A stretch of 64,000 nt of DNA from Candidatus Omnitrophota bacterium (GTDB lineage Bacteria > Omnitrophota > Gorgyraeia > Gygaellales > JAQTUX01), in the NCBI GenBank assembly GCA_028707125.1, contig JAQTUX010000001.1, positions 269,639 to 333,638 of the forward strand, written 5' to 3'. Made by a program: the position numbers and the translations under genes. Numbering within the stretch: the first letter of the stretch is position 1; every line of letters begins with the position of its first letter. The notes under the pieces were generated by a model that saw nothing but the letters and a program-made list of their open reading frames with translations, searched no databases and was not told where the DNA came from. Of this stretch, positions 3-17,114 are shown piece after piece.

Positions 3-3000
3 GAGCTGTTTACCGACGACCCGGGGCTTTCAGGCGCGATAGGCGGCGGCGCGGCTACGCAGGAAAGCAGCGGCATCTATCCTCCGGGCCAGGGCTGGAA
101 CACCAACGGCAGCCAGGCAACGGTTACGATGTACACCACAGGCACATACGCGTCAACCGCTCCCCAAAACCGTTCGTATAAGGTGCAGATAGATACGGCA
201 GGCAATACATTTTCCTGGTGGTATATGGACGATACCACCAACTGGACGAATACCGTCGGCGGCAGCGCAGTGGCAATGTCCACCAATTCCGCGGGCACTG
301 ACTTAAACGCCGGGGTCAAGGTGTATTTCAGCGCGGCATCAGGCACTGCCAACGACAGCTGGTATTTCTCCGCCTCAAACGGGACCGCCTATGGCGGGTA
401 TGATTCCTATGCCCAGACAGCCGCCTATACCGCGGGCGAAACAAGGATTTACAAGGACGGGGACCCGTTTTCTCCATATTACAACAAGATGGTATTCCAG
501 AGCGGGGCGACCAAGGTTACCCTTGACCAGCTGGCAGGCACTGTCGCCACCAACGCCACCATCTATAATCCCGCTATTGTCGGCGCCAACTCAGGCGGGC
601 TTACGATGTACAGTTCGGGAAGCTATACCGGTTCCGAGAGCCGCGCGTATCAGGTAAAGATCTCTTCGCAGGGTGTTGCCGGCACAAGCTCTGATAAGTT
701 CCAGTTTAAATACGGCGTCAATGACTGGGGCCCGGTAGGCGGCACAAGCATAACCGGCTCGCAGCAGTCCTTAGGCGACGGTATTTTTATCAGTTTTTCC
801 GAGAGCAACTACACTAACGACGGCACGATCACAGGCGGCAGCTCCTCAAATCCCGACCAGTGGAGCTTTAACGTTGTCGCCGGCTCAACCTCTACCAGCG
901 CCGGCGGCTGGACGGATTCTGGTACAGATGTGTACAGCTCCGCGGTAACCGACAATGTCGCCATTGGTACCACTGTTCCCGGCGGATACAAGTTGAATGT
1001 CAGCGGCACAGCCAACGCCACCACCTTGACAGAAGGCACAAACGCCGTGCCCAACGCAACCGACCACCTCGGCTTCTTTGCCGCAACCACCTCAGCGCAG
1101 CTTGCCGGAGTGCTATCGGATGAAACCGGCTCAGGTGGTGTCGCAGTATTCGCCACATCCCCTACAATCGCCACTCCCATTATTTCAACCTCTGCCACAG
1201 TTCCTCTGGTTATAGGCGGCAGCGCGACCACCAGCGATCTTTCCCTTCAGACCACTTCAGCCGCTGGTGAGGCAGGCGCGGATATGCATTTCCTCGTCGG
1301 CAATAACGGACAGACAGAGGCGATGACCATACTTAATTCCGGCTACGTGGGCATCGGCTCAACTGTCCCCACAGCAGCCCTGGACATAAACGGCAATATC
1401 CAGGTCTCTGGTACCATCACCGGCACCGTTGCCACAGCAGGCGGCTGGACAGACGCGGGCACATCTATGTATCCGACCAATGTGGACGATAACGTGGCCA
1501 TAGGCACAACAGACCCCGGCTCCTACGACTTGAATGTCGCGGGCACAGCCAATATGGGCACTCTATCCATAGGCGGCACTGCAGTCACAGCCAGCGCGAC
1601 AGAACTCAACTTCGTTGACGGGGTAACATCAGCCATTCAGACACAGCTTGATTCAAAGAGCGCGGCAAGCGACACACTTACTGGTTTAGTCCAGTCCACT
1701 GCCGCGGGCACAAGCTACATTACGGGCGGCTCTGTCGGCATCGGGACGACGAGTCCTCAATATTTGCTTGATGTAGACAAATCAGCCACAGGAAACTATA
1801 TTGCTCATATAAAGAATAGCGGGACTGCATCTTACGGGCTTTTTATAGAAGCCGGGACTGATACGGGTGATTATATTGTGAGCGTGGCAAGTAAGACAGG
1901 AAGTAACAAATTTGTAATAAGGGGTGACGGCAACGTCGGTATCGGCACGGTTGCACCAACCGCGCTATTGGACGTCAACGGCACTGCCAATGTTAACACG
2001 CTTTCAATAGGCGACACTACGATCACCCCCACGGCAGCAGAGCTCAACTTCGTAGACGGGGTAACATCAGCCATCCAGACACAGCTTGACGCAAAGGTGG
2101 GCACAAGCACCGCCTTCATAGGCGACGTCACCGGCGCCTACAACGCCACAGTTGTCGGCAACGACTCCCACGACCACACTGCCTCTACCATCTCCGGCCT
2201 GGGCGTCTCTGACTTCACTTCAGCCGCTATCTCCCAGTGGACCAATGACTCCAACTTCATCACCGCGGCAAGCACCATCACAGGGCTCATCCAGTCCACA
2301 GCCGCAGGCACCTCCTACATCACAGGCGGGAGCGTTGGGATAGGCACAGCAGTGCCGGGTGGTAAACTTGATATTTACGCTGACCAAAGCACCGAATACG
2401 CGTTGGTGGCGAGAAACACCGCCGACGCCAACCAGATTACGCATGCCTTTGACGCCAGCGCCGGCAATGCCCTTTTTAGATTGTGGGATGTTAATGGAGG
2501 TTTGAATGTTAATCTAGCTGCCAGTGGAAACAGCTATCTTAACGGCGGCAACGTCGGCATCGGGACGGCAGTGCCGGGTAGCGCATTAGAGGTCCAGGGA
2601 AATGTAACGCTTAACGACCGTTTGATTATGAGCGGTGATAGTATTGGCGCAACTGTTGATACAGCATACAACACGATTAAGGGCGCCATAGGGCCAACTA
2701 TAAACGGCCTAACATTAACCGGGGCATTAGTAGATTCTAACTTTTCAGACGATAATGCAAATATTACAAATGTGTATGGGTTAAAAATAGCAACTGCGGT
2801 TACGGGTCAGTATACTACAACTAATGCCTATGGATTATATGTAGACCAACCCACAGGTGCTACAAATAATTATGGCGCATATATAAACGGCAACCTCATT
2901 GTCTCCGGCACCATCACAGGAACAGTTGCCGCGGCCGGCGGCTGGACAGACGCGGGCACATCTCTCTACAACACCGAGCTGACTGACAAGGTAGGCATAG

Positions 3001-6000
3001 GCACTGCCACTCCTTCCCAGCTCCTGGACGTCAACGGCATTGCTAATGTGAACACGCTCTCCATAGGCGATACCACCGTTACATCCACTGCGGCAGAATT
3101 GAACATATTAGACGGCGTAACAGCCACCGCAACCGAGCTCAACTATGTTGACGGCGTAACATCAGCCATACAAACACAGCTGAACGCCAAGGTAGGTACA
3201 GCCACTTCATTCTCAGGAGACGTGACCGGCGCCTACAACGCCACAGTTGTCGGCAACGACTCCCACGACCACACCGCCTCAACCATCTCAGGGTTAGGCG
3301 TCTCTGACTTCACTTCAGCCGCCATCTCCCAGTGGACCAATGACTCCAACTTCATCACCGCTGCCTCTACCATCACTGGACTGATCCAGTCCACAGCCGC
3401 AGGCACAAGTTACATCACAGGCGGGGATGTAGGCATCGGGACTGCAGTGCCGGGAGAGAAACTTCATGTTTACAAAGAAAGTTTAACTGATAATAGTCAG
3501 GCAAAATTACTCAAGTTAGAAGGGAAGTTTAATGATGCTAGCATAGATAGCGATGATGTAATAGGAATTTCAGTAAAGGCGGTTAACTCTAGTGGGGGAT
3601 CCGGAGAGAATATGATTATTGGTGGCTCATGGGGAGGATCAGCGGTCAATACTTTATTAGCAGTAGATGGCGGCAACGTCGGCATCGGGACGACGGTGCC
3701 CGCGGCGAAATTGCATGTCTCGGCCCCGGCGGTTATTGCCGGCGGGTTTTATTCGGTCGCGGCAAATGACGCTGACGCGGATATCTGGGGTATTTCAACG
3801 ACCTATTATCCATCTCATGGAACAGCAGCCAACCAGTGGGGTATCAAGTGGCAGTCCACGCCGAACGCATTCTCTTTTGTGGGGAATGGCAGCGAGAAAT
3901 TAAACATCGATGTGGATACGGCAGGGCATATTTCGATGGTCGTGAACGGCGGCAACGTCGGCATCGGCTCAGCCGTGCCAGTTGCGAAACTTGATGTTGT
4001 CGGGACTGCCGAAGTGGACGGCCTCTCCATAGGCGGTACAGCAGTCACTCCCACCGCGGCTGAACTCAACTACGTTGACGGCGTAACCTCTGCCATACAG
4101 ACACAGCTTGACGCCAAGGTAGGCACAGCCACTTCGTTCTCAGGCGACGTGACCGGCGCCTACAACGCCACAGTTGTCGGCAACGACTCCCACGACCACA
4201 CTACCTCTACCATATCAGGGCTGGGTGTTGCTGACTTCTCCTCAGCCAACATCTCCCAGTGGACCAATGACTCCGGATATTTCAATACCAGTAACGACGG
4301 CGCAGGCAGCGGTTTGGACGCGGATATGGTGGATGGGTTGCATCCTACGCAATTCTTCAACGCCCACGGTCAGAATCACGGCACATATACGGACTTCAAT
4401 ACGCCTACAGATTTTGGATTTAGATACATTGTGGGTACCACAAACGGCCCTGGCATAGCCGGCGCAAGCCAATACTATAATCTTGGCATAGGGTTAGGTA
4501 ATGATTATGCCTATACAAGTTACGCTATGCAACTGGCGATTCCGAGAAACTTAAGCACTCCATATATATCTGTGAGATATAGAGAGAATGGAGCTTGGGG
4601 GTCGTGGTATAAGATTTATGCCGGATATGCTGATACCGCGGCCGCGCTTTCCAGCATGAACATCAGTCAGTTTACCAATAATTCCGGTTACTTTAATACT
4701 AGTAATGACGGCGCGGGAAGCGGCCTGGATGCTGACCTGCTGGACGGCCAAAGCAGCGCTTATTATATGACTGCCGCAACCGACAATTGGGTGAATACGA
4801 CCGGGGACACGATGAGCGGGAATCTGTATTTCAATAATTATGGGCTGGGAGTCATCGGCACCTATAGTGATATAAGATATCAGGGCGTATTTGCCATGGG
4901 CGATGCTTATAAGCTCGCTCTGGACGGTACGACATCAGGGACTTTATATGGCATTGCCTGGACCCATAGCAATATCGGAGGCCAATCCAAGGCGGGGTTA
5001 AGTCATCAGGCATTGTTTATGACAAATGGCGTGACTCAGACAGCAATAGGAACGGGTATATGGACGCTTGGCGGCTATACGCAAAGCGGGACAAGCACGA
5101 ATGCTTTTATGGGCAGCGTCGGCATCGGCACAGTGGCGCCGGGAGCGAAGCTGCATGTGACAAGCGCCAATACCGGAGCAGGGTTGTTGAGGTTGGATAA
5201 TACCGGTGGTTCAGCCGGGGATGTAAACGGGGTAGATTTTTATCATAATAACGGAACGTATTTACAGGCGTTTATACGCGATGAGATTCTGAGCAGCTGG
5301 CCCACGAAATTACATTTCGGCGTTGCCTCAACGAGCAACAACGCCGCGACAAAGATGACCATACAGGGGTCAAACGGCTACGTGGGCATCGGCACAGTGA
5401 GCCCGGCGGCGCATCTTCAGGTCGGCACAGGCACTCCCGGCTCTGCCACAGGCGCGGGCGACCTGTATGTGGCAAGCGACCTCGAGGTTGATTCCACCGC
5501 CTATCTTGACCTGGACGCGCGGGTAGGCCGCGACTTTATCGGCACAGCCGCCACTTCGTATATGTATATGACCGGCACGCTCACGGTTGACCTGGACAAC
5601 GACAACAATGGTACGGACAAGTTTTCTATAAGGGACGGCGGCAATACCGAGATATTCTACGTGAATGAAGATAACGGAGGCGGAGGCAATGTTGTGGCAA
5701 AGGGAGTCACCGAAGGCTCATACATAGGGTTATTCAAGGGCTTGGGTTCGCTTCCGGGCTACGGCTCCAGCCGTTATCCGACGCTGAAGACGGATTACTC
5801 CTACTTGTATTTCTCCGTTGCCGGCGCGTACTCCGCGTATATGGGCTCTAACGGCGTCCTGACCGCCCAATCCAGCCGCGAGAAGAAGGAGAACTTTAAG
5901 GAGCTTGACTTTGATAATGTCCTGGCAAAGATTGATAAAATGCCGGTTATGGAGTGGAACTACAAGAACGAAGAAGATTCCATAAAGCACATCGGCCCGT

Positions 6001-6179
6001 TTGCCGAGGATTTCCACGCGCTTTTCGGACTGAACGGCACCGATAATACAATGATCGGCCACAGCGACCCTCCGGGCGTTGCCCTCGCCGGCGTAAAAGG
6101 GCTGTATAGGAAGGTGAAGGAGCAGGAGAGGGTGATTGAAGAGCTGGAGACAAGGATAGCGGCGTTGGAGAAGAAGTAA
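3..6179 (+). CDS. Giant Gly/Thr/Ser/Ala-rich fibre-like surface protein (5'-partial; frame open to window start), C-terminal intramolecular chaperone / peptidase S74-like auto-processing domain
   Basis: Single >2000-aa ORF with no stop back to nt 3. Recurring motifs GGWTD(A/S)GT, NVGIGT(A/T)xP, AAELN(F/Y)VDGVTSAIQTQLDAKVGT. C-terminal SSREKKENFKELDFDNVLAKIDKMPVMEWNYK...HIGPFAEDFHALFGL plus coiled-coil tail is typical of tail-fibre/endosialidase C-terminal chaperone domains. Confidence 0.75.
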   Translation, partial: ELFTDDPGLSGAIGGGAATQESSGIYPPGQGWNTNGSQATVTMYTTGTYASTAPQNRSYKVQIDTAGNTFSWWYMDDTTNWTNTVGGSAVAMSTNSAGTDLNAGVKVYFSAASGTANDSWYFSASNGTAYGGYDSYAQTAAYTAGETRIYKDGDPFSPYYNKMVFQSGATKVTLDQLAGTVATNATIYNPAIVGANSGGLTMYSSGSYTGSESRAYQVKISSQGVAGTSSDKFQFKYGVNDWGPVGGTSITGSQQSLGDGIFISFSESNYTNDGTITGGSSSNPDQWSFNVVAGSTSTSAGGWTDSGTDVYSSAVTDNVAIGTTVPGGYKLNVSGTANATTLTEGTNAVPNATDHLGFFAATTSAQLAGVLSDETGSGGVAVFATSPTIATPIISTSATVPLVIGGSATTSDLSLQTTSAAGEAGADMHFLVGNNGQTEAMTILNSGYVGIGSTVPTAALDINGNIQVSGTITGTVATAGGWTDAGTSMYPTNVDDNVAIGTTDPGSYDLNVAGTANMGTLSIGGTAVTASATELNFVDGVTSAIQTQLDSKSAASDTLTGLVQSTAAGTSYITGGSVGIGTTSPQYLLDVDKSATGNYIAHIKNSGTASYGLFIEAGTDTGDYIVSVASKTGSNKFVIRGDGNVGIGTVAPTALLDVNGTANVNTLSIGDTTITPTAAELNFVDGVTSAIQTQLDAKVGTSTAFIGDVTGAYNATVVGNDSHDHTASTISGLGVSDFTSAAISQWTNDSNFITAASTITGLIQSTAAGTSYITGGSVGIGTAVPGGKLDIYADQSTEYALVARNTADANQITHAFDASAGNALFRLWDVNGGLNVNLAASGNSYLNGGNVGIGTAVPGSALEVQGNVTLNDRLIMSGDSIGATVDTAYNTIKGAIGPTINGLTLTGALVDSNFSDDNANITNVYGLKIATAVTGQYTTTNAYGLYVDQPTGATNNYGAYINGNLIVSGTITGTVAAAGGWTDAGTSLYNTELTDKVGIGTATPSQLLDVNGIANVNTLSIGDTTVTSTAAELNILDGVTATATELNYVDGVTSAIQTQLNAKVGTATSFSGDVTGAYNATVVGNDSHDHTASTISGLGVSDFTSAAISQWTNDSNFITAASTITGLIQSTAAGTSYITGGDVGIGTAVPGEKLHVYKESLTDNSQAKLLKLEGKFNDASIDSDDVIGISVKAVNSSGGSGENMIIGGSWGGSAVNTLLAVDGGNVGIGTTVPAAKLHVSAPAVIAGGFYSVAANDADADIWGISTTYYPSHGTAANQWGIKWQSTPNAFSFVGNGSEKLNIDVDTAGHISMVVNGGNVGIGSAVPVAKLDVVGTAEVDGLSIGGTAVTPTAAELNYVDGVTSAIQTQLDAKVGTATSFSGDVTGAYNATVVGNDSHDHTTSTISGLGVADFSSANISQWTNDSGYFNTSNDGAGSGLDADMVDGLHPTQFFNAHGQNHGTYTDFNTPTDFGFRYIVGTTNGPGIAGASQYYNLGIGLGNDYAYTSYAMQLAIPRNLSTPYISVRYRENGAWGSWYKIYAGYADTAAALSSMNISQFTNNSGYFNTSNDGAGSGLDADLLDGQSSAYYMTAATDNWVNTTGDTMSGNLYFNNYGLGVIGTYSDIRYQGVFAMGDAYKLALDGTTSGTLYGIAWTHSNIGGQSKAGLSHQALFMTNGVTQTAIGTGIWTLGGYTQSGTSTNAFMGSVGIGTVAPGAKLHVTSANTGAGLLRLDNTGGSAGDVNGVDFYHNNGTYLQAFIRDEILSSWPTKLHFGVASTSNNAATKMTIQGSNGYVGIGTVSPAAHLQVGTGTPGSATGAGDLYVASDLEVDSTAYLDLDARVGRDFIGTAATSYMYMTGTLTVDLDNDNNGTDKFSIRDGGNTEIFYVNEDNGGGGNVVAKGVTEGSYIGLFKGLGSLPGYGSSRYPTLKTDYSYLYFSVAGAYSAYMGSNGVLTAQSSREKKENFKELDFDNVLAKIDKMPVMEWNYKNEEDSIKHIGPFAEDFHALFGLNGTDNTMIGHSDPPGVALAGVKGLYRKVKEQERVIEELETRIAALEKK
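2030..2345 (+). repeat. Intragenic long repeat copy A (~300 bp, near-identical to copies at ~3125-3440 and ~4050-4270; shorter relative at ~1595-1665)
   Basis: Long DNA stretches re-occur almost verbatim, e.g. caccggcgcctacaacgccacagttgtcggcaacgactcccacgaccaca...cccagtggaccaatgactccaacttcatcacc. Encodes the repeated AAELNFVDGVTSAIQTQLDAKVGT...SHDHTASTISGLGVSDFTSAAISQWTNDSNFITAASTITGLIQSTAAGTSYITGG module. Confidence 0.8.
3125..3440 (+). repeat. Intragenic long repeat copy B
   Basis: Same module as 2030-2345 with a few substitutions. Confidence 0.8.
4050..4270 (+). repeat. Intragenic long repeat copy C (shorter)
   Basis: AAELNYVDGVTSAIQTQLDAKVGTATSFSGDVTGAYNATVVGNDSHDHTTSTISGLGVADFSSANISQWTNDS at protein level; DNA near-identical to copy B. 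Confidence 0.75.
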
Positions 6180-6187
6180 GACCAAAA

Positions 6188-6308
6188 GCGTATATCAGAT
6201 TATCAGTGTGTCAGTTAGAGTTTATCAGTTTATCAGAATATCAGAGAGAATGACCAATGTCCAATTTACCAATGACGAATGAAATCACAATGACTCAAAT
6301 CCCAAATA
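6188..6308 (+). repeat. Left arm of long imperfect inverted repeat; contains a tandem tatcag hexamer array at 6191-6246 and overlaps the 5' end of the four-helix-bundle ORF
   Basis: gcgtatatcagattatcag...tcagttagag...tatcagaatatcagaga...ttaccaatgacgaatgaaatcacaatgactcaaatcccaaata matches the reverse complement of 6656-6769 (ctgcgtatatcagaacatcag...tcagttagag...aattaccaaatcccaatgacgaatgaatgtccaaatcccaatacccaa). Confidence 0.7.
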
Positions 6309-6655
6309 GAAAGTATGATTTGCGGGAGAGAACTGCTAAATTTGGAGAAAACATAGTTAATTTCGCGAAGAGCATACCTGAAAATAGTGTGAATAGGCCA
6401 TTAATAAGTCAGCTAGTAAGGGCAGGTACGAGCGTAGGAGCTAATTATTGTGAAGCAGACGATGCCTCAACAAGGAAGGACTTCTTTTACAAAATTGGGA
6501 CCTGTAGGAGAGAATCAAAAGAGTCTAAGCATTGGCTTAGGATGATAACGACTGCTGTGCCTTCTTTGAAGGCTGAAGCCGAACTGTTCTTAAACGAGGC
6601 TCAAGAGTTAAATTTGATATTTTCCGCCATTATTAATAGGGCCGGAAAACGTTAA
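6257..6655 (+). CDS. Four-helix-bundle protein (23S rRNA intervening-sequence protein family, TIGR02436-like)
   Basis: 132 aa. KYDLRERTAKFGENIVNFAKSIPENSVNRPLISQLVRAGTSVGANYCEADDASTRKDFFYKIGTCRRESKESKHWL matches the family hallmarks (sQL.RA.tSvgaN..Ea....kDF..k..i...E..Et..WL). True start may be one of several in-frame Met (6257-6290). Confidence 0.75.
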   Translation: MSNLPMTNEITMTQIPNRKYDLRERTAKFGENIVNFAKSIPENSVNRPLISQLVRAGTSVGANYCEADDASTRKDFFYKIGTCRRESKESKHWLRMITTAVPSLKAEAELFLNEAQELNLIFSAIINRAGKR

Positions 6656-6769
6656 TTGGGTATTGGGATTTGGACATTCATTCGTCATTGGGATTTGGTA
6701 ATTGTGGCTTAAGCTGATATACCGTTCTCTGATGTTCTCTAACTGATAAACTGATGTTCTGATATACGC
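6656..6769 (+). repeat. Right arm of inverted repeat flanking the four-helix-bundle gene
   Basis: Reverse complement aligns with 6188-6308 (see left arm). Confidence 0.7.
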
Positions 6770-6850
6770 AGTTAACCCTGATAACCTTTACTTATCCGTA
6801 ACCATAACCGATAAACGTAACCCAATACCCGTTCCCTCCCTAGATTTTCA

Positions 6851-6879
6851 TTGTAAAAGCCGCGAAAATATGATATAAA
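6851..6879 (+). promoter_or_regulatory. Candidate sigma70-like promoter (TTGTAA-N17-TATAAA) ahead of the ABC-transporter/rSAM super-operon
   Basis: ttgtaa aagccgcgaaaatatga tataaa, about 55 nt upstream of the 6933 start codon in the only sizeable AT-rich intergenic gap. Confidence 0.3.
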
Positions 6880-6932
6880 ATCAGTTATACACCGAGTCCC
6901 GAGCCCTCCCAGCAGGAGACAATTAATACAAG

Positions 6933-7709
6933 ATGTCCGGTTATTTTCTGAGGCTAATCAAGGCGCGGCATATTCTGCGAAGCATGGTCCTGAAGAACTT
7001 GAAGGACAAATATGTCGGCTCAACACTGGGTATCTTCTGGGCGGTGATAAACCCCCTGTTGATCATGTCGGCCGTATCCTTTGTTTTCACTCAGGTGATG
7101 CAAACCCCGATACGGCGCTACCCGCTGCTGGTATTAAGCGCCTACCTTCCCTGGAATTTCTTCGTTAACTCCGCCACTGAAAGCGCCGCCTGCATAAGGC
7201 AGAATCAAGGCATACTCTCTCAATACACCATCCCCCGCGAGGCCATACCCGTATCAGTCGCGCTCGCCGATTTCCTGAACTTTTTATTCGGATTCGCGGC
7301 GATGCTGCCGATATTCATCTTCATGAACAGGGGGGCCGCGGGATGCCTGTGGCTGCTGCCTTTGGTAATGGCCCTGCATCTGGCATTCACCGTCGGGATC
7401 TCCTTATTGTTCAGCATCATCAATATATATTTCAGGGATTTTTCCCAGCTCCTGGGAGTGGGAATGCTGTTCTGGTTCTGGGTCACGCCGGTCTTCTACA
7501 CCCTGGAGATGATGCCTGCCGGCCTTCGCGGGGCATTCCTGGCCAACCCCGCCACATGCTATACGGTTATTTACAGGGAATTATTATATAACGGCCGCTG
7601 CGGCGGCATATCCATGTGGGTATTGGCCGTTATCTTCGCTTTGGCGAGTTTGGCGGGTGGATACATCTTATTTGCCGCCAAAGAAAAGGATATCCTCAAG
7701 CATATTTAG
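6933..7709 (+). CDS. ABC-2 type polysaccharide/glycan export permease (Wzm/TagG-like)
   Basis: 258 aa, 6 predicted TM helices, ABC-2 permease signature region. Stop immediately followed by the ATPase gene start. Confidence 0.75.
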   Translation: MSGYFLRLIKARHILRSMVLKNLKDKYVGSTLGIFWAVINPLLIMSAVSFVFTQVMQTPIRRYPLLVLSAYLPWNFFVNSATESAACIRQNQGILSQYTIPREAIPVSVALADFLNFLFGFAAMLPIFIFMNRGAAGCLWLLPLVMALHLAFTVGISLLFSIINIYFRDFSQLLGVGMLFWFWVTPVFYTLEMMPAGLRGAFLANPATCYTVIYRELLYNGRCGGISMWVLAVIFALASLAGGYILFAAKEKDILKHI

Positions 7710-10421
7710 ATGATAACGCTGGAAGACGTTTGGCTGAAATACAGGATAGCGTTCAAGGAAGGCGCGAGGGCCGTTTGCGAGGATTTCTGGGCGCTTAAGG
7801 GCATAGACCTGAATGTCGGCAAGGGAGAGTGTTTCGCGGTCATCGGAGAGAACGGCTCAGGCAAGACCACGCTCCTGAGGGTGATCAGCGGCATGCTAAT
7901 GCCTGACAAGGGCAGGGTGCGCCTGGGAGGAAGGGTCGCCGGGCTTATGGAGATACAGGCCGGTTTCCATCCTGAACTGACCGGCAGGGAGAATATCTAC
8001 AATATCTCGGCGCTTTCAGGCCTGAGCGCCGATGAGACAGGCGCCTGTTACGCGGACATGGTTGAGTTTGCCGCCATCGGCAGGTTCATCAACGCCCCGG
8101 TAAAGACATACTCCCAGGGCATGCTTGTGCGCCTTGCCTTTGCCATAGCCATACACGCGCGCACCGACATATTGCTGGTTGACGACATATTCGCGGTAGG
8201 CGATATTTATGCCCGGCGCAAGTGCATTAATAAGATGTTTGAGCTGAAGGATAAGGGCCTGACCATTATTTTTGTTTCTCATGACCTGGATATTGCCAGG
8301 CGGCTGTGTAAAAGAGGCGTGCTGCTCAGGGAAGGCAGGGTTATCAGGGCCGGTTCAATAGACGGACTCGTCAGTTATTATCTTGAGACGGTAGGCAATA
8401 AGGAAGGTATAGCCCTGCTGCAAAAAGGGCGGCTGGCAATTATTTTTAATAACGGCAAGCTGATCATCAGGTGGAACGACTCCGCTCTTACCAAGGGCGC
8501 GGCCGGGCATACGGTGATGAGCTCTTCGGGCAGGACATATCAGTCAGATACCGCCTCCTGGATTATCCGGCAGCCGGCGGCAGCCGATGAGATCGTTGCC
8601 GTAGGCAGGTGGCCGGATATGCCGGCTGAGCTTATCTGGAAGATACGCTGCCGCGGCGAAAAGGAATTCAGCTGGGATGTAACTCTGCAGGCGCGCGCAC
8701 AGGCCCGGATAGAGGATTACACGGCCAGATTGATCCTGACCGACGAATACGAGGGCTGGTTTACATCGCAGGAGGAATACGTTTTTCCGGAGGCGTTCCT
8801 GCATGAGAACGAATGGCAGAGCCGCCGGATAGACGATCATCTTAACTGGCTGATAGGGTTAAAGACGGGAGCCGATAGCGGCGAAGGCCTGCCAACGCTT
8901 GTTTTAGACAGCTCAGGCGCGGATAAACAGGGCGCCTGCCAGATCGGCAATACCGGCATTGAGGCCTCTGCCAGAGGTATTCAGTTCAATTACGTTAATC
9001 CGGAACCAGAGCATGCCGCGGGCAGCTATAAGTTTTTTTCAACCGGCGTGAAGTTATTTGAGGAGCGGGACAGGCAGGATTTTGAATGTTATATGGCGCG
9101 GGCAAGGCAGGCCGGCAGGCGCAGGATCATCAGCCGCGGCCCGCTCGCCCTGTGTTGCGGGCAGCGCAAAATAGAGATTTTCCTGCGGGATGCGCTTTTA
9201 AGCAGCGGCGCGGGGCTGGATACGAAATTCATCTGGCAGGGCCGTACCTACAGCGCCGCCGGAGGTAACTGGTCCGTAGAAAAAGAAGGAGATAATTATC
9301 TTGTAGTTAATATCTTTTGGGGGCCCGAAGCGCCTTTTTTCCAGGTATGGAGAATGGAACTGCGGGATGAGTCCGCCATTTTCTGGCAGGCGGATATGGA
9401 AATAAGAGATGGGCTGGAGATCAGGAACAGGCAGGTTGAGCTTTTTCTCAGCGGCCGATATGACAGGTGGTTTACGCCTTCGGAAAACGGCGACTTTGGG
9501 GCAGTGGAAAAAAAAGGCAACACAGTCATACTAAGTAAATACATAAACGATTTTTCCGGCGTAGAACAGTCCTGCCTTATGCCGGCGGTTACCTTCGCCA
9601 ATCAAGACGGCCGCGCCAGAGTGTCGTATATTTCCCGGGGCCAGGACAAGGAATTAAATACGAAGCTGCATTATCTGGAGATAGATCCCGCCGCTGACGC
9701 GGCGCTTGAAGCAGGCAGGCACGCCTTTTTTAAGGGGGCCATAAGGATAGCGCCCAGGCAGGGACAAAAAGGCGTTGACGCGGTTGTCAATAATAACGGC
9801 GCGGCCGCGGCGATAAATTTTAACGGCGTTTCTCTGGATTTCAGGCACGGCAGGATGCGTCTTTTCTATGAAGGCGTTGAATTGACAAAAGGGCTGGGCC
9901 TTTACTCTGCGGTTTTGCATGAAGGCAACTGGCATGATTCTTCGCAGGGACTATGGAAGGTCGAGGCCTCGGACAGGGAAAGGTTCGTCGCCGTGGGCCG
10001 CTGGCCGTGGCTGCCTGTCAGGCAGGAATGGGAAGTAACGCTATTGGATGGCCGCGATATCATCTGGCGCATAACCAGGGATACCCGGGACGGCTTTGAT
10101 CCCGACAAGGAGCAGGTTAACCTGATGCTGTCGGATAATTACCGGGAGTGGTTTGTCCGGGAAAGGGCGCGGGGAAGGTTTCCCGAAGAGTTTGCCGAGC
10201 ATACCCGCGGCGGGTTCTGGGAGCGGTTATGGTCGGCGGCAGCGCAGTCGCCGGTCGGCGCCAAAGGGCCTGGGCTGCCGTCTGTCCTCCTGGACTGTTC
10301 AGAGAGCCCGGTTCCCGGCCGCCTGTGCATTGAGAACACGGACGCGTTATTCAAGGCCAGGGTCCTGCAGTGCGAATCGGCGCAGCAAAAACATTTTAGC
10401 GGAAAGATAAAGATATGCTGA
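7710..10421 (+). CDS. ABC transporter ATP-binding protein (Wzt/TagH-like) with ~650-aa C-terminal extension of repeated Trp-rich beta domains
   Basis: Walker A GENGSGKTTLLRVISG, signature-like YSQGMLVRLAFA, Walker B ILLVDD. C-terminal 650 aa carry three related ~110-aa units, e.g. VAVGRWPDMPAELIWKIRCRGEKEFSWDVTLQ...YEGWFT / FWGPEAPFFQVWRMELRDESAIFWQADMEIRD...YDRWFT / VAVGRWPWLPVRQEWEVTLLDGRDIIWRITRD...YREWFV. Confidence 0.8.
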   Translation: MITLEDVWLKYRIAFKEGARAVCEDFWALKGIDLNVGKGECFAVIGENGSGKTTLLRVISGMLMPDKGRVRLGGRVAGLMEIQAGFHPELTGRENIYNISALSGLSADETGACYADMVEFAAIGRFINAPVKTYSQGMLVRLAFAIAIHARTDILLVDDIFAVGDIYARRKCINKMFELKDKGLTIIFVSHDLDIARRLCKRGVLLREGRVIRAGSIDGLVSYYLETVGNKEGIALLQKGRLAIIFNNGKLIIRWNDSALTKGAAGHTVMSSSGRTYQSDTASWIIRQPAAADEIVAVGRWPDMPAELIWKIRCRGEKEFSWDVTLQARAQARIEDYTARLILTDEYEGWFTSQEEYVFPEAFLHENEWQSRRIDDHLNWLIGLKTGADSGEGLPTLVLDSSGADKQGACQIGNTGIEASARGIQFNYVNPEPEHAAGSYKFFSTGVKLFEERDRQDFECYMARARQAGRRRIISRGPLALCCGQRKIEIFLRDALLSSGAGLDTKFIWQGRTYSAAGGNWSVEKEGDNYLVVNIFWGPEAPFFQVWRMELRDESAIFWQADMEIRDGLEIRNRQVELFLSGRYDRWFTPSENGDFGAVEKKGNTVILSKYINDFSGVEQSCLMPAVTFANQDGRARVSYISRGQDKELNTKLHYLEIDPAADAALEAGRHAFFKGAIRIAPRQGQKGVDAVVNNNGAAAAINFNGVSLDFRHGRMRLFYEGVELTKGLGLYSAVLHEGNWHDSSQGLWKVEASDRERFVAVGRWPWLPVRQEWEVTLLDGRDIIWRITRDTRDGFDPDKEQVNLMLSDNYREWFVRERARGRFPEEFAEHTRGGFWERLWSAAAQSPVGAKGPGLPSVLLDCSESPVPGRLCIENTDALFKARVLQCESAQQKHFSGKIKIC

Positions 10422-13400
10422 AGGGCCTTTTATTTAATAACAGGAACAGGCGCGCGATAGAACGCGCCGGCATAAAAATAGATATTGATGAAGAGCGCCG
10501 CTTCAGGATCTACCATAACGGCAGCGAGCTCAGCAAGCTGCAGGGCATGCGCGTCTGTTTGTTTTCAGAGGGCAGATGGCACTATTTTCCCGCCAAAGAC
10601 AGTATCTTGAAGATAAGCAGGCCCGATGAAACCAGTTTTAGTTTGCGGCTTTACAATAGAACGCTGCCTGTTGTCCTGCATTGGGGAATGGAGCTGGGTG
10701 AGGGCAGCCGGTTGAAATGGAGCGTGGAATTAGAGCTAAAGGGGCCCATACGGCTGGATGCCGTGAAGGCCGTAGTGCTCCTCAGCCGTTCCTATAAAAG
10801 CTGGTTCTCTTATTCCGGCGCTAAAGAGGGCCTGTTCGCTGATAGCGCCGGAGAATTCCGGCAGGAGATCGGTATTGCCGATTCTGATTTTTTAAGCATT
10901 GGCGCGGACAGGCCGGAAATTGCCACGCTGCTGTTAAGGGCGGTTGATTCGCCTTTAAATGTTTCTTTGTGTAACACGGATGATCTGTCTTCCTCGCGTG
11001 AAGTTGATCTCTGCTGCAACGGGCAGAAGGAATTTTATGCCCCCGGCAGGCACTCTTGTTTTCAGGCGGTTATTGAACTCTGCGGGGATAAGTCCGCAGT
11101 AGAAAATATCATTCAGGATGTAAAAGGCAGAAAGAGGCGCGAAGAAGAAGAGGCGCTGCGTAAAAAGGAAGAGGAGCGCCTGGCGGAAGAAGAACAGCGC
11201 CGGCTAGAGGAAGAACGCCTGCGCCAGGAGGAACAAAGGCGCCTGGAAGAAGAGCGCCGAAAACAGGAAGAGCTCAAGCGCCTGGAAGAAGAGCGCCTGA
11301 GAATTGAGCGCGCGCGGGACCGGCAGCGGCGCACGCTTGAGGCGGGTGATTTCAGGATTTATTTTGACTACAATAACCGTTTCCATTTCTACCACAGGAA
11401 TGAGGAGTTTACCAAGGCGCATGGCCTGCATACGGGTATATTTTCAGAGGGCCGCTGGTATGGTTCGGCGGATTCAGAGGCCGCTATAGAGAATAGTGAG
11501 CCGGGTAGATTAAGGATCAATTTCAGGCACAGACATCTGCCCGTTATTCAATCCTGGGACCTGCGGTTAGATTCCGCGGGAGTAATCAGGTGGAGCGTTG
11601 ATATGCGGCTTGAGCAGCCGTTAAGGATAGAGCGCAGGAACGCCTGCCTGTTTTTGTCCCGCGCCTATGACAGGTGGCTTGCGCCTCCGGACGCGGGGGC
11701 GTTCCCCGCGGCATTCGGCCTGCAATGGCAGATGGCCAGCCCTTCGGAGAGCAGGCCGGGCTTTATAGGGCTGACGTCCGGGATGAAGCAGCTGCCGGGC
11801 ATAACATTAAAGGGCTCCGAAGACGGCGGCCGCCTGGCTGTTCATAACGCGGATATGGATGTCTCATCCCGCGTCCTTGAGGAGCGTTTTGAAGAGCGCG
11901 TAGAGTTTTACAAGGCAGGCGATTACTCTTTCTCGCGGGCGGTCATCCGGCTTTATAATGATAACGCGGCCATCGAGGGCGCGTTCAAAGAGGCGGAAGA
12001 AAAAGAGAACGCGCTCAGAGAGTTGCGCAAAGAGCGGCTGAGGCGCGCCGCCGGGCTAAGGCAGGGGAGAAAAGAATTTGAGGGGCTGCGCCTGCGCCCC
12101 GCGGCCTCGCGCGTCGTTATTTACGGCGATTCCCAGGGCCTGCACGATAAGATCAGCGGCGAGGCAGGCGGTTTTAACAGGGCCGTAGCGTGCATTAAGG
12201 CAGAAAGCGGCACAGCCGCGGTAGGTATCTCACGGTTTAATTTCTTCAAGATCCATGAGGTCGTCCAGTTCATCTCTACTTTGAGGAACGCGCGGATCGA
12301 TACGCGCCCTGTCTGCCTGCCGCTGTTTCCGGCAAGCGGTATTTACTCCAGTTTTCTTAATTACATAAAGGAGATCAAATCTCTCGTCGCAGGAAAGGGC
12401 ATCGAACTTTTCTTAAAAGACGTTGATCTGCTCAAACTCCTGCAGGCTGTGTCTTCGCAGTCCAATAGAGATAACGAGAGGGACCTGCTGCGGCTTCTGG
12501 GGCTGATAGCCGAGCATCCCTTTATCGGGCCGCAGACGCTGGTCCTCGACACAACGCATAAATGCAATACAAACTGCGCCCATTGCTGGATACACAACCC
12601 CCGCAGCAAGACGCCCCCCGCCGTGCTCGAATCAAAGATGGACGACCGCCTGTACAGGAAGATCATTGACGACGCGGCAGCCATTTTGAGCGACGAGGTC
12701 ATAATACAGGGCGACGGAGAGCCGCTTCTGGACGACCGCTTTATCGAGATGGCGCGTTACGCCAGGGACAAGGGGTTAAAGGTCCTGTTCTTTACCAACG
12801 GCATACTCCTGGATGAGGCGACGGCTAAATGCCTGATAGACCTGGAGGTCAATGAGATATTCTGCAGCCTGCCCGCCGGGACCGACCTGACCTACAGCTG
12901 GATAAATTCGCGGCAGTCAAAAGACACCTTCCACAGGATCGTCGGCAATCTGAAAAACCTGATCTCCCTGAGGAACGGCTCGGGCAGGCCCCTGCCGCTT
13001 TTGCAGATGACCCACGTGATACACAATATGAATTGCCATGAGATCGAGCAGATGTCCGCTGTTGACGCGGACATAGGCGCGGACAGGGCACGCTTCTACC
13101 TGGCCCGCCTTGACGAGAACATCGCGCATTTAAAGATACTATCTTCACAGGTAGAGGCGCTAAAGGCATCCCTGCGGAAGGCCGCCGCGTTGCTTAAAGA
13201 AAGCAAAATAGACCTGCAGGACAATATTTTTTTCCAGCTGGACAATTATCAGCCGGAGACCGGTTACTGGTCGCAGGGCCGTTTTCTTGAAACGGGCTGC
13301 CCGGTGGGGTGGTTTTTCGCGCTGATATTGGCTGGAGGAGAATTGAGCATGTGCTGCCATATGCGGGTGGTCGGGCGCCTGGGGGAAAGATCGCTGAGGG

Positions 13401-13588
13401 AGGCGTGGAATTCCCGGGAATACAACGATTACAGGGTCAAGGCCAAACATATGCGGGACAATATGGACGCGCGTTTCTCAAACGGCGTCAAGCTTTACGA
13501 TGATTTCTGCAATCATTGCGATACGCATCAGGTGATCTTAAGGATAAACGGCCTGCTGGAGCGATACGGGCTGAAGAAATTCTTATAA
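10415..13588 (+). CDS. Multidomain radical SAM/SPASM protein: Trp-rich domain - ER/K-rich single alpha-helix - Trp-rich domain - linker - radical SAM core - Cys-rich C-terminal (SPASM-like) domain
   Basis: CX3CX2C motif in LVLDTTHKCNTNCAHCWIHNP. C-terminal cysteines GCPVGW...MCCHM...FCNHCDTH. Two N-terminal domains (RWHYFP...LHWGMELGEGSRLKWSVELEL...YKSWFS; RWYGSA...QSWDLRLDSAGVIRWSVDMRL...YDRWLA) resemble the ABC ATPase tail repeats. Charged stretch EEEALRKKEEERLAEEEQRRLEEERLRQEEQRRLEEERRKQEELKRLEEERLRIERARDRQRR. Confidence 0.8.
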   Translation: MLKGLLFNNRNRRAIERAGIKIDIDEERRFRIYHNGSELSKLQGMRVCLFSEGRWHYFPAKDSILKISRPDETSFSLRLYNRTLPVVLHWGMELGEGSRLKWSVELELKGPIRLDAVKAVVLLSRSYKSWFSYSGAKEGLFADSAGEFRQEIGIADSDFLSIGADRPEIATLLLRAVDSPLNVSLCNTDDLSSSREVDLCCNGQKEFYAPGRHSCFQAVIELCGDKSAVENIIQDVKGRKRREEEEALRKKEEERLAEEEQRRLEEERLRQEEQRRLEEERRKQEELKRLEEERLRIERARDRQRRTLEAGDFRIYFDYNNRFHFYHRNEEFTKAHGLHTGIFSEGRWYGSADSEAAIENSEPGRLRINFRHRHLPVIQSWDLRLDSAGVIRWSVDMRLEQPLRIERRNACLFLSRAYDRWLAPPDAGAFPAAFGLQWQMASPSESRPGFIGLTSGMKQLPGITLKGSEDGGRLAVHNADMDVSSRVLEERFEERVEFYKAGDYSFSRAVIRLYNDNAAIEGAFKEAEEKENALRELRKERLRRAAGLRQGRKEFEGLRLRPAASRVVIYGDSQGLHDKISGEAGGFNRAVACIKAESGTAAVGISRFNFFKIHEVVQFISTLRNARIDTRPVCLPLFPASGIYSSFLNYIKEIKSLVAGKGIELFLKDVDLLKLLQAVSSQSNRDNERDLLRLLGLIAEHPFIGPQTLVLDTTHKCNTNCAHCWIHNPRSKTPPAVLESKMDDRLYRKIIDDAAAILSDEVIIQGDGEPLLDDRFIEMARYARDKGLKVLFFTNGILLDEATAKCLIDLEVNEIFCSLPAGTDLTYSWINSRQSKDTFHRIVGNLKNLISLRNGSGRPLPLLQMTHVIHNMNCHEIEQMSAVDADIGADRARFYLARLDENIAHLKILSSQVEALKASLRKAAALLKESKIDLQDNIFFQLDNYQPETGYWSQGRFLETGCPVGWFFALILAGGELSMCCHMRVVGRLGERSLREAWNSREYNDYRVKAKHMRDNMDARFSNGVKLYDDFCNHCDTHQVILRINGLLERYGLKKFL
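11140..11310 (+). repeat. 39-nt tandem coding repeats (x3-4) encoding the ER/K-rich helix
   Basis: gaagaacagcgccggctagaggaagaacgcctgcgccag / gaggaacaaaggcgcctggaagaagagcgccgaaaacag / gaagagctcaagcgcctggaagaagagcgcctgagaatt (11189-11305), preceded by a degenerate copy. Confidence 0.7.
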
Positions 13589-13593
13589 AAGAT

Positions 13594-15798: not shown

Positions 15799-17114
15799 AG
15801 AGCGGCTCACGCTGGGTGAAGTTCAGGGATAGGCTGAAAAACAGCGGCCTGAAGGATACGCTGAGGACGGCTATGCTGGAATTGAGGCCCGGGCGTTTTT
15901 TCGGGGATTATCTTGATGTGCTGGGGGTGCTGGACGGGCTGCACGCTTATAAAGGCCCGGAGTTCGCCCAGATAGACCTTACCAACGACTGTAATAATAA
16001 TTGTATCGGCTGCTGGTGCAATTCGCCGCTTCTCGGAGACAAAAGGATAAGGTCCGGTGATAAAAGGCGGACACTGTCCCTTAAAAGCGTGCTGAAACTT
16101 CTTGATGAGTTGTCCGCCATGGCCACGCGCCATATTTATTATGCCGGCGGCGGCGAACCGTTCATGCACCCCGATATTATGGAGATACTCAGATACACAA
16201 AGCGGAAAGGGTTTGTCTGTTACGTAAATACCAATTTTACCCTGCTTGACGAAGAGAAGATAAGGAAGATCGTAGATTTGAAGGTTGATCATCTGACCGT
16301 GAGTGTCTGGGCGGCAACGCCTGAGGCCTACTGCTTCACGCACCCCAACAAGGAGGGGGCGGATTTTCTGAGGATAAAGGAGATGCTTTCGCTGCTTAAC
16401 CGGATCAAGCGCGGATACCCGGTAGTCAAACTATACAATGTGATCTTCAATATGAATTACCATGAGCTTTCCGCCATGGTGGATCTTGCCGCGGACACGA
16501 ATTCAGAGGCGGTTGAATTCACGGTCATCGATACCATCCCCGGCAGGACGGATAAGTTGTTGTTGAACCCCCAAGAGCGCAGCGCGTTGTTGGAGGAATG
16601 CAGGAAGATTGAACAGCGCAGCGCGAACGCGCATCTTCGGCCGCGGCCGCAGATAATGAATTTGCGGCAGTTCGCGCGCCGGATCGAAAACGCGGCCTCC
16701 TCAAGCGCCGAATATGATTCAGATGTGATCGGCAGCATGCCTTGCTACGCCGGATGGGCGTTCACGAGGATACTGGCCGACGGCAGCGTGAATTCCTGCC
16801 TGAAATCCCACCGTTTCCCCGTGGGCAATATCCGCCAGGAGAGCTTCAAGAAGATATGGAACGACAGGCGCCAGAGGTATTTCAGAAGGAAGGCCTACCA
16901 TCTGGATAGATCGGACCCCTTTTTCAAGATCATAGGCAACGACCCTGATTCGGCAATGGGCTGCTATAAAAGCTGCGATAATCTCGGACATAACATGGAG
17001 ATGCACGGCAAGATGTCCGCTTTGAGCGCCCGCCAAAGAAGATGGCTTGAACGCGCGGCAGGGATCATGAAGTCAGGGCGCAGATATTACTACGGAATGG
17101 CCGGAGGTAAATAA
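15795..17114 (+). CDS. Radical SAM protein with Cys-rich C-terminal (twitch/SPASM-like) region
   Basis: IDLTNDCNNNCIGCWC (CX3CX2C); GGGEPFMHPD. C-terminal cysteines MPCYAGW...NSCLKSH...GCYKSCDN. Confidence 0.75.
   Translation: MKSGSRWVKFRDRLKNSGLKDTLRTAMLELRPGRFFGDYLDVLGVLDGLHAYKGPEFAQIDLTNDCNNNCIGCWCNSPLLGDKRIRSGDKRRTLSLKSVLKLLDELSAMATRHIYYAGGGEPFMHPDIMEILRYTKRKGFVCYVNTNFTLLDEEKIRKIVDLKVDHLTVSVWAATPEAYCFTHPNKEGADFLRIKEMLSLLNRIKRGYPVVKLYNVIFNMNYHELSAMVDLAADTNSEAVEFTVIDTIPGRTDKLLLNPQERSALLEECRKIEQRSANAHLRPRPQIMNLRQFARRIENAASSSAEYDSDVIGSMPCYAGWAFTRILADGSVNSCLKSHRFPVGNIRQESFKKIWNDRRQRYFRRKAYHLDRSDPFFKIIGNDPDSAMGCYKSCDNLGHNMEMHGKMSALSARQRRWLERAAGIMKSGRRYYYGMAGGK

Follow-up and report, generated by a model that had tools for sequence, protein, structure and literature searches.

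In a 64,000-nt stretch of a contig from a Candidatus Omnitrophota bacterium (JAQTUX010000001.1, positions 269,639 to 333,638; the whole stretch is called the window below), an element at 6188-6769 carries a gene for a small four-helix-bundle protein of the S23p (23S_rRNA_IVP) family between the two arms of a long inverted repeat. This element is very probably a member of a family of discrete arm-gene-arm cassettes. Its inner part (~6250-6706) is well supported as belonging to a very large family of discrete cassettes in which a conserved four-helix-bundle gene lies within arrays of 7-9-nt units. Its outer part (6188-6244 and 6714-6769) is likewise well supported as a hairpin of TATCAG octamers, of a kind that also exists without a gene, with the cassette at its apex. 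Units of this arm-gene-arm build are found in many bacterial phyla, and the element therefore looks like a self-contained genetic cassette that is widespread and largely undescribed. The features of the element and the spacer that follows it are listed here.

6188-6244, + strand: outer left arm, units of 8 nt with TATCAG at the end, about seven in number (gcgtatatcag attatcag tgtgtcag ... aatatcag)
6244-6249, + strand: Shine-Dalgarno-like, purine-rich GAGAGA, read from the sequence, 7 nt upstream of the ATG at 6257
6250-6305, + strand: inner left arm, AATGNC(N) heptamer and octamer units (atgacc aatgtcc aatttacc aatgacg aatga aatcac aatgactca aatccca)
6257-6655, + strand: four-helix-bundle (S23p / 23S_rRNA_IVP) gene, 132 aa; folded core residues 19-132 (6311-6652); residues 1-17 arm-encoded and predicted to be disordered
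6656-6713, + strand: inner right arm, complement of the inner-left units (...gggtatt gggatt tggacatt catt cgtcatt gggatt tggtaatt...)
6714-6769, + strand: outer right arm, CTGATA and CTGATG units, ending ...CTGATATACGC
6770-6932, + strand: spacer before the ABC-2 permease gene, with degenerate GATAAC, GTAACC and CCGATAAAC repeats and a promoter-like site

The arms form a two-tier stem

RNA folding of 6180-6775 gave a minimum free energy of -185.4 kcal/mol, compared to -141.0 +/- 5.8 kcal/mol for dinucleotide shuffles (z = -7.6), and none of 100 shuffles was as stable. The predicted long-range stem comprises 83 pairs, from 6188:6769 to 6305:6663, only three of which are G·U. A first-pass annotation of the window had described long imperfect inverted repeats with exact blocks and had proposed this fold as a check, and both were borne out: the 41-nt arms at 6188-6228 and 6729-6769 are 83% complementary, and the inner blocks 6269-6283/6677-6691 (15/15) and 6296-6305/6663-6672 (10/10) are exact. 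A chance inverted repeat was rejected on the z-score of the fold, together with displaced-flank and shuffle controls across homologous loci.

Absent from the first-pass annotation was that the stem is composite, with two tiers made of different repeat types, TATCAG octamers outside and AATGNC(N) units inside. The outer tier pairs 6188-6244 with 6714-6769 through 46 pairs and, when folded alone, has a dG of -56.8 (z -11.8). The inner tier pairs 6254-6305 with 6663-6706 through 37 pairs and has, when folded alone, a dG of -44 (z -5.8). The TATCAG array, already reported in the annotation, is real, with 4 matches to TTATCAGNNTATCAG where 0.01 would be expected by chance. The element is AT-rich, having a GC content of 35-41% compared to ~50-56% in its flanks. 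No further heptamer or TATCAG arrays were found in the 64-kb window, and Rfam at gathering thresholds returned nothing in it.

The element sequence is 100% identical in an independent short-read assembly (run SRR22315508), whose Logan contigs (L207 and L208) are broken within the inner right arm at 6677-6683. Also present in that sample is P0013 (locus L082), a paralogue or relative with 79% identity. In the protein database, many members of the family come from ~1-kb contigs, a pattern that suggests that cassettes commonly fragment assemblies.

The arm-gene-arm unit recurs across bacterial phyla

A genome scan yielded 80 homologous loci in about ten phyla, among them Omnitrophota, Patescibacteria (Candidate Phyla Radiation, CPR), Planctomycetota, Cloacimonadota, Margulisiibacteriota and Verrucomicrobiota. 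At each locus, the 200 nt upstream of the conserved core were aligned as an inverted repeat with the 200 nt downstream. Inverted arms surround the gene at ~75 of the 80 loci, with scores of 30-99 compared to ~17 for shuffled or displaced flanks. The arms are typically 55-60 nt long and abut the core. Throughout the family, the spacing of AAT within arms shows a sharp peak at 7 nt, the words CTAAT, AATGAC and AATGTC are 40-140-fold enriched, and ~73% of arms have stop codons in each of the three frames, compared to 3.6% of background windows. In the closest relatives (79-83% protein identity; L081-L086), the inner arm is near-verbatim that of the window, and the TATCAG arrays are absent.

The unit is discrete. 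Between same-genome paralogues (L016/L018 and L060/L064), similarity is confined to 432-444 bp and stops at the arm ends, the flanks being unrelated; the inner cassette of the window (~6250-6706) measures ~457 nt. Orthologous sites retain the cassette though their flanks are only 67% identical. When the window is compared to its relatives, the arms are 68-87% identical and four-fold degenerate third positions only 20-53%. Arms are therefore more conserved than synonymous sites, which indicates that the arm sequence itself is constrained.

No flanking direct repeat that might represent a target-site duplication was found in 75 of the 80 loci; fuzzy arm ends leave short duplications unreadable. 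A single Cloacimonadota lineage has long direct repeats around the cassette: in L018, L019 and L045 a 45-75-bp direct repeat (…AAAGGTTAAATATGATTTTTTTAAGTAATTTCCA…) lies outside the arms, at ~70-145 nt from the core on the upstream side and 75-160 nt on the downstream side. This repeat could be a long target duplication or belong to another repeat family. The arms of L016 contain a small nested palindrome at mirrored positions, the left copy ~40-60 nt upstream of the core (cccgac-ctgt-gtcggg / cccgac-aagt-gtcggg), and from the sequences it looks as if an insertion in one arm had been copied into the other. Carriage of the close subfamily by phages or plasmids was rejected: IMG/VR viral contigs held no copy of it, a PHROG search with the window protein matched no family, and plasmid matches were to distant cyanobacterial relatives only.

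The cassette gene is under purifying selection

The first-pass annotation had placed the open reading frame (ORF) at 6257-6655 in the rRNA intervening-sequence (IVS) family of four-helix bundles, and profile searches agreed, with 44.9 bits against PF05635 (curated cut-off 33.8) and 66.5 bits against TIGR02436 (curated cut-off 24). Besides these two, no family in Pfam or NCBIfam was matched. An AlphaFold (AF2) monomer model of the product is an up-down four-helix bundle from residue 22 on, with a predicted local distance difference test (pLDDT) score of 88.8, and the arm-encoded residues 1-17 are disordered in it. Foldseek ranked the S23-family structures 2RLD (E 6e-6, template modelling (TM) score 0.70/0.84) and 2GSC first, followed by Avd, and a profile search of the PDB returned 2RLD with an E of 2e-18. 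Both 2RLD and 2GSC are five-chain PDB entries (S23-family pentamers). The Avd structures (4DWL and the 8UB7 complex) matched the model with TM scores of 0.65-0.78 and a sequence identity of 14-15%; Avd resembles Pfam family PF05635 (PMC10053308). A known anti-phage defence system was rejected, as the sole match among PADLOC defence models was weak (candidate PDC-S39, E 0.002, 14.9 bits).

More than 7,000 relatives of the ORF product were found at E <= 1e-5 in one protein search. The ratio of nonsynonymous to synonymous substitution (dN/dS) between relatives is 0.05-0.27, indicating purifying selection; pairs with indels in the core were excluded, their values being meaningless. Between the window and L001/L002, synonymous sites are saturated and the proportion of nonsynonymous differences (pN) is only 0.12.

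The left arm does overlap the start of the gene, as the first-pass annotation had noted, for the in-frame ATGs at 6257, 6272 and 6290 are all within the inner left arm. The GAGAGA at 6244-6249 may serve as the ribosome-binding site, judging from its sequence and position. In close relatives the matching position, just outside the first arm unit, reads GAGAGA, GGGAGA or AAGGAGGG. The inner left arm also contains an out-of-frame, 10-codon upstream ORF (MTNVQFTNDE), which runs from the ATG at 6250 to a TGA at 6280-6282 and extends over the beginning of the main ORF. Overlapping stop/start motifs (TAATG, ATGA) are present in arm units throughout the family.

The outer tier resembles hairpins that exist without a gene

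Of 81 loci, only the window has, outside its heptamer arms, a further substantial inverted repeat made of a different unit type (score 47, z 12). A scan of metagenomes for TATCAG arrays gave at least 120 loci. None of the 120 listed loci carries a close relative of the window protein, and TATCAG arrays as the arms of the window's own subfamily were rejected on this ground; at four of the at least 120 loci, the arrays directly flank a gene of a distant PF05635 subfamily. An inverted CTGATA array lies within 2.5 kb at 13 of the 120 listed loci, mostly 20-113 nt away, making a gene-less hairpin, and the other 107 have no inverted partner by the criterion applied.

One such gene-less hairpin (L104:2464-2599; fold z -9.2) is located in a co-directional sugar-nucleotide operon and has termini in common with the window, GCGTATATCAG ... 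ACGCAGTTAAC, of which GCGTATATCAG is the terminus of the outer left arm and ACGCAGTTAAC the sequence adjoining the outer right arm. The GDP-mannose-dehydratase-like gene downstream of this hairpin (L104:2957-5071) encodes 704 aa and appears to hold an intein with a LAGLIDADG-type motif (…LYLLGLYIGDGY…). At L094:3524-5000 (reverse-complemented), a PilT-like ATPase gene has a gene-less TATCAG hairpin on either side, the two being nearly identical; gene-less TATCAG hairpins thus recur within one genome. The cassette heptamer words also form gene-less hairpins, of which about 11 were found near cassettes. Their polarity is always 5'-(CTAAT/AATGAC)n...(ATTAG/GTCATT)n-3' and never reversed.

Because the outer tier is unique to the window and has a gene-less counterpart in L104, we conclude that a cassette typical of its family sits at the apex of a hairpin type that exists alone. 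The two-tier structure may have arisen either by insertion of the cassette into a hairpin loop or by growth of the arms.

Cassettes lie in the sense orientation between unrelated genes

The cassette is co-oriented with both neighbours at 61 of 77 loci and is antisense to both at a single locus. The flanking host genes stop or begin where the arms have their outer edges, at median distances from the core of 75 and 89 nt. Among the neighbours, 108 and 114 distinct Pfam families were counted, each with three hits at most; they include tRNA synthetases, MurB, MreB, DnaB, ATP synthase and pilus genes. Genes for a recombinase, transposase or reverse transcriptase do not recur in the vicinity of the 80 relatives. 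Among six further close relatives, the gene context differs from one to the next; one of the relatives (L085) is placed within an ABC operon, with the gene for the binding protein on one side and the permease genes on the other.

In the window, the gene upstream of the element (129-6179) encodes a 2016-aa protein with a C-terminal Peptidase_S74 fibre-chaperone domain, and the element starts 8 nt past its stop codon. This protein has several near-identical internal repeats (e.g. …TAAELNFVDGVTSAIQTQLDAKVGT…DSHDHTASTISGLGVSDFTSAAISQWTNDSNFITAAS…), and its self-cleaving chaperone domain is of the sort found in phage tail fibres and endosialidases. Downstream of the element lie an ABC-2 permease gene, an ABC ATPase gene and, directly after this pair, four consecutive large radical-SAM/SPASM proteins (10415-18169). 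The genes immediately behind the ABC transporter are not obviously glycan genes, and the stretch that the first-pass annotation named a glycan super-operon would, from its sequence, begin with an export system and radical-SAM maturases, a combination seen more typically in the modification of peptides or unusual sugars. The spacer at 6770-6932 is probably outside the cassette. Its degenerate repeats resemble decayed right-arm units, and the promoter-like site in it, TTTTCA-18-TATGAT at 6845-6874, lies ahead of the ABC-2 permease gene.

A scan found no convincing promoter or terminator within the window's element. A role as terminator for the fibre gene, which the annotation had suggested, is not supported, given the absence of any terminator-like site on the + strand of 5900-7100 and the lack of a U-tract after the stem (the sequence past 6769 is AGTTAACCCTGATAACC). 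Since the neighbours across loci are unrelated and the element has no convincing promoter or terminator, the link to the fibre and glycan genes is best seen as incidental, and a functional or specific link to either flank, also part of the annotation, was rejected. There is no rRNA near the cassettes in the window (Rfam) or at the eight loci with large flanking gaps, and the copies inside rRNA that the annotation had envisaged were not present among the loci examined.

Cultured cyanobacterial relatives have near-perfect heptamer arms

Distant relatives with 35-39% identity on plasmids of cultured cyanobacteria (Nostoc and Aulosira) have the same architecture with near-perfect heptamer arms. 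The gene of Nostoc flagelliforme CCNUN1, in a cassette at 34,071-34,565 of plasmid pNFSY05, has (AATTCAA)x4 on one side and the perfect complement of this array on the other, the arms being 31 nt long, 100% complementary and 433 nt apart. The arms of Aulosira laxa are (AATTCAA)x5, and those of Nostoc sp. ATCC 53789 and strain N6 are (AATTCGC)x4. On the N. flagelliforme plasmid pNFSY05 (L209:1363-1386 and 1882-1905), an 11-bp direct repeat, TGGAGTTGGGT, flanks the cassette, its copies lying ~17 nt beyond the left arm and ~5 nt beyond the right one; it could be the remnant of a target duplication or a chance match.

In Nostoc sp. ATCC 53789, a 466-bp cassette (L216:534-999) replaces 328 bp of a DNA cytosine methyltransferase gene (L218:489-816), including the PC catalytic motif, and the gene is intact in about a dozen related plasmids. 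A clean insertion was rejected here, the cassette replacing 328 bp and not simply interrupting the gene. The methyltransferase flanks would join in frame once the cassette was removed. The Nostoc plasmids thus show a presence/absence polymorphism of the cassette. Together with the arm-gene-arm architecture of most loci and with the paralogues that share nothing beyond the unit, this polymorphism upholds the first-pass view of an autonomous hairpin element.

Several cyanobacterial plasmid cassettes are located among CRISPR genes. In Anabaena cylindrica pANACY.01 (L210) and Nostoc TCL26-01 (L215) the gene lies between cas2 and cas1, antisense to both. In Pseudanabaena galeata (L211) it lies between csx2 and cas1, and the upstream flank is a run of 35-nt direct repeats. 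"23S rRNA IVP" has been listed among CRISPR-adaptation associations (PMC10910872). The cassettes adjacent to cas1 and cas2 probably explain this reported association, and a CRISPR-associated label in large screens would follow from cassettes sitting between cas1 and cas2 in several of these plasmids.

How the cassette may work

By our estimate there is about an even chance that the cassette acts at the RNA level, as an IVS-type unit in a host transcript whose arms form a processed stem of double-stranded RNA (dsRNA). Its extreme sense bias and the lack of a promoter of its own suggest that the cassette is expressed via host transcripts, which it would ride in the sense orientation. Once the right arm was transcribed, the arms would pair as a long dsRNA stem, burying the cassette's ribosome-binding site and start codons. 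RNase III would then cut the stem, by analogy with the Coxiella IVS and Correia elements. Such a cut would restrain expression from the cassette gene, free the cassette RNA by excision, and give the fibre RNA upstream and the ABC transporter RNA downstream ends that are capped by a stem. The protein would be an Avd-like, nucleic-acid-associated pentamer, probably binding the repeated arm units; binding to nucleic acid is a reasonable guess, given that Avd works as part of a ribonucleoprotein complex. For the window itself we infer transcription through the element, translation of the ORF and excision by RNase III from these analogies.

Several observations weigh against this RNA-level mechanism. 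A sense-strand RNA signature was not seen across 78 loci, where G·U-compatible and A·C-type transitions were equal in number (119 and 119, with 482 transversions) and sense and antisense stems were equally stable. Structure-defined inner stem pairs gave 23 G·U/U·G compared to 20 A·C/C·A cells, again with no G·U excess. Since neither strand test found an excess of G·U, a mechanism at the DNA level is a live rival. A locus's own right arm is the best partner of its left arm at only 12 of 80 loci, which suggests that sequence recognition may matter more than pairing, and pairing is kept mainly by sequence conservation of both arms. The analogy with Coxiella is also incomplete because the Coxiella ORF appears to be decaying and unexpressed, whereas the window ORF is strongly conserved. 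Lastly, for the window neither a target-site duplication nor an empty site was found, the exact-protein look-up giving only same-population contigs that are broken in the arm.

Pairing within the inner stem was followed in an alignment of 11 relatives, in which 83.5% of cells are paired compared to 24-52% when the partners are slid. The compensatory excess was modest, with 8 pairs showing double changes and a covariation of 0.131, compared to 0.104 in shuffles (3 of 500 reach the observed value) and 0.03-0.08 in slid alignments. Free covariation of the arms was rejected as the main pattern, given the shared unit vocabulary, the low number of loci at which the own partner is best, and a compensation that is modest and limited to the close clade.

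The DNA-level alternative, which we regard as possible at a lower level of confidence, is a mobile element with arrays of protein-binding units in inverted orientation at its ends, much like the ends of transposons or the REP/RAYT system (repetitive extragenic palindromes and their associated tyrosine transposases), the arrays being recognised by the four-helix-bundle pentamer. Mobility or homogenisation of the arms would proceed via DNA hairpins, cruciforms or single-stranded DNA, the gene-less hairpins would be non-autonomous derivatives, and the sense bias would merely reflect a need for expression by host read-through. The symmetric arm mismatches without G·U excess agree with this explanation, as do the conserved unit vocabulary and the cross-locus complementarity of arms (28.9 compared to ~17 random), the fixed polarity, and gene-less hairpins in the same loci. 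So do the discreteness of the unit, with its unrelated flanks and its presence/absence polymorphism, and a unit type that varies with the protein clade (TATCAG for a different PF05635 subfamily; AATTCAA or AATTCGC in Nostoc). However, the cassette neither encodes a transposase, recombinase or reverse transcriptase nor has one as a recurrent neighbour, and the protein is a helical bundle of 110 residues without a known catalytic motif. A general target-site duplication is lacking, same-genome copies are 16-21% diverged with no sign of recent bursts, and the 61:1 sense bias is stronger than would be expected for a purely DNA-level element.

A hairpin that serves the host is improbable. Here the element would be an intercistronic mRNA stabiliser, insulator or terminator setting the ratio of fibre to ABC/radical-SAM expression, much as REP hairpins lie between malE and malF, and the gene would be incidental. 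Its place just past the fibre stop codon and upstream of the promoter-like site at 6845-6874 would suit such a role, as would the position of L085 inside an ABC operon, the retention of cassettes at orthologous sites over long divergence and the gene-less L104 hairpin inside a sugar-nucleotide operon. Yet no dedicated partnership is visible among the neighbours, which are housekeeping genes from more than 100 families with no relation to one another, and neither a U-tract nor a terminator-scan match was found. The strong purifying selection on the ORF means that the gene is not incidental, and in Nostoc a cassette interrupts and inactivates a methyltransferase gene. An Avd-type accessory gene of a diversity-generating retroelement, diversifying the adjacent fibre protein, is highly improbable and effectively refuted: the fold resembles Avd, Avd resembles PF05635 and a large surface fibre gene adjoins, but identity to Avd is low, cassettes occur beside unrelated genes, and no reverse transcriptase domain is found in the seven neighbouring proteins of the window or recurrently at the 80 relatives.

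Relation to known elements

The IVSs that carry S23p genes are defined by their site, helix 25 or helix 45 of the 23S rRNA gene. As in those of Coxiella and Leptospira, the window element has a PF05635 ORF in the loop of a terminal-repeat hairpin. It is similar in unit size to that of Coxiella and, like it, has heptamer repeats directly before the ORF start (GACAGAT in Coxiella, AATGNC(N) in the window). The gene-in-loop geometry that the first-pass annotation had likened to rRNA IVSs is indeed close to the anatomy of the 428-nt Coxiella burnetii 23S rRNA IVS, which comprises an S23p ORF, two or three tandem heptamers before the start codon and a terminal inverted-repeat stem cut by RNase III at mapped sites, with removal of the Shine-Dalgarno region (PMC4990558). 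The differences are that the window element lies between protein-coding genes with no rRNA, that its arms are ~115 nt long (~55-60 nt in relatives) compared to a 28-bp stem in Coxiella, and that its ORF is strongly selected where that of Coxiella appears decaying and unexpressed (PMC4990558). RNase III excision, moreover, is known from Coxiella and would apply here by analogy. The window element has every anatomical trait of an IVS except location in rRNA, and because it lies outside rRNA we class it not as an rRNA IVS but as an operon-intergenic, array-armed cassette. This protein family is also reported to occur in rRNA insertions of CPR bacteria (PMC11270868).

Correia elements of Neisseria (CREE, Correia repeat enclosed elements; also NEMIS) are likewise short, inverted-repeat, intergenic elements, in their case co-transcribed with neighbouring genes, and RNase III binds CREE hairpins in transcripts and either cuts or protects them (PMC2649163). 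Hairpins without a gene, whether of TATCAG units or of heptamers (L104, L094, L048, L049), look like this class. CREEs have no gene, unique-sequence 26-bp inverted repeats and a TA target duplication (PMC2649163), whereas cassette arms are tandem arrays of 7-9-nt units, many elements hold a conserved gene and no target duplication is seen. Transposons with terminal inverted repeats and their miniature derivatives also occur in multiple copies with unrelated flanks. Such transposons differ in that the cassette encodes no transposase or recombinase, its sole ORF being the four-helix-bundle protein.

The REP/RAYT system shares with the cassettes a gene within inverted short repeats plus many gene-less intergenic copies. 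A RAYT is a Y1 (IS200/IS605-like) transposase and usually single-copy, whereas the cassette protein is a small helical bundle without a known catalytic motif and gene-bearing units are multi-copy. The STRR sequences of cyanobacteria (repetitive sequences that are short and tandemly repeated) are intergenic heptamer arrays of unknown function that have been described as repeats only, and to judge by the title of one paper they are reportedly also found inside the RNase P RNA gene of heterocyst-forming cyanobacteria. Tandem heptamer arms are common to both, the Nostoc and Aulosira gene lying between inverted (AATTCAA)n or (AATTCGC)n, although the host of the window element is an Omnitrophota bacterium and not a cyanobacterium. 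Avd shares the four-helix-bundle fold, and the window differs from its setting in having no reverse transcriptase or template/variable repeat pair, as well as in the low sequence identity.

Significance

The only described contexts of this four-helix-bundle family are, to our knowledge, a handful of rRNA IVSs and the distantly related retroelement protein Avd. No literature was found on an arm-gene-arm architecture outside rRNA or on its link to STRR, within a coverage that is incomplete and no proof of absence. We suggest, tentatively, that S23p cassettes and hairpins of the same units form one widespread, unrecognised class of autonomous and non-autonomous elements that colonise the apical loops of transcribed hairpins, be they helices of rRNA, hairpins between cistrons such as the TATCAG hairpin of the window, or further structured RNAs. 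In the Avd-like protein the element would have a nucleic-acid-binding factor of its own, and the class would be the source of STRR and of the arrays in CPR, Omnitrophota and Planctomycetota.

The cultured Nostoc relatives have perfect heptamer arms, so that the RNase III and protein-binding hypotheses are directly testable. The cassette pattern may also explain why short-read assemblies break at these genes. The four-helix-bundle / 23S-rRNA-IVS family is among the commoner uncharacterised bacterial families. If its genes are generally packaged as operon cassettes, the rRNA IVS becomes a special case of a broader element, STRR heptamers and CPR intergenic hairpins gain a candidate source, and the protein gains a testable job, that of binding or processing its own repeat arms.

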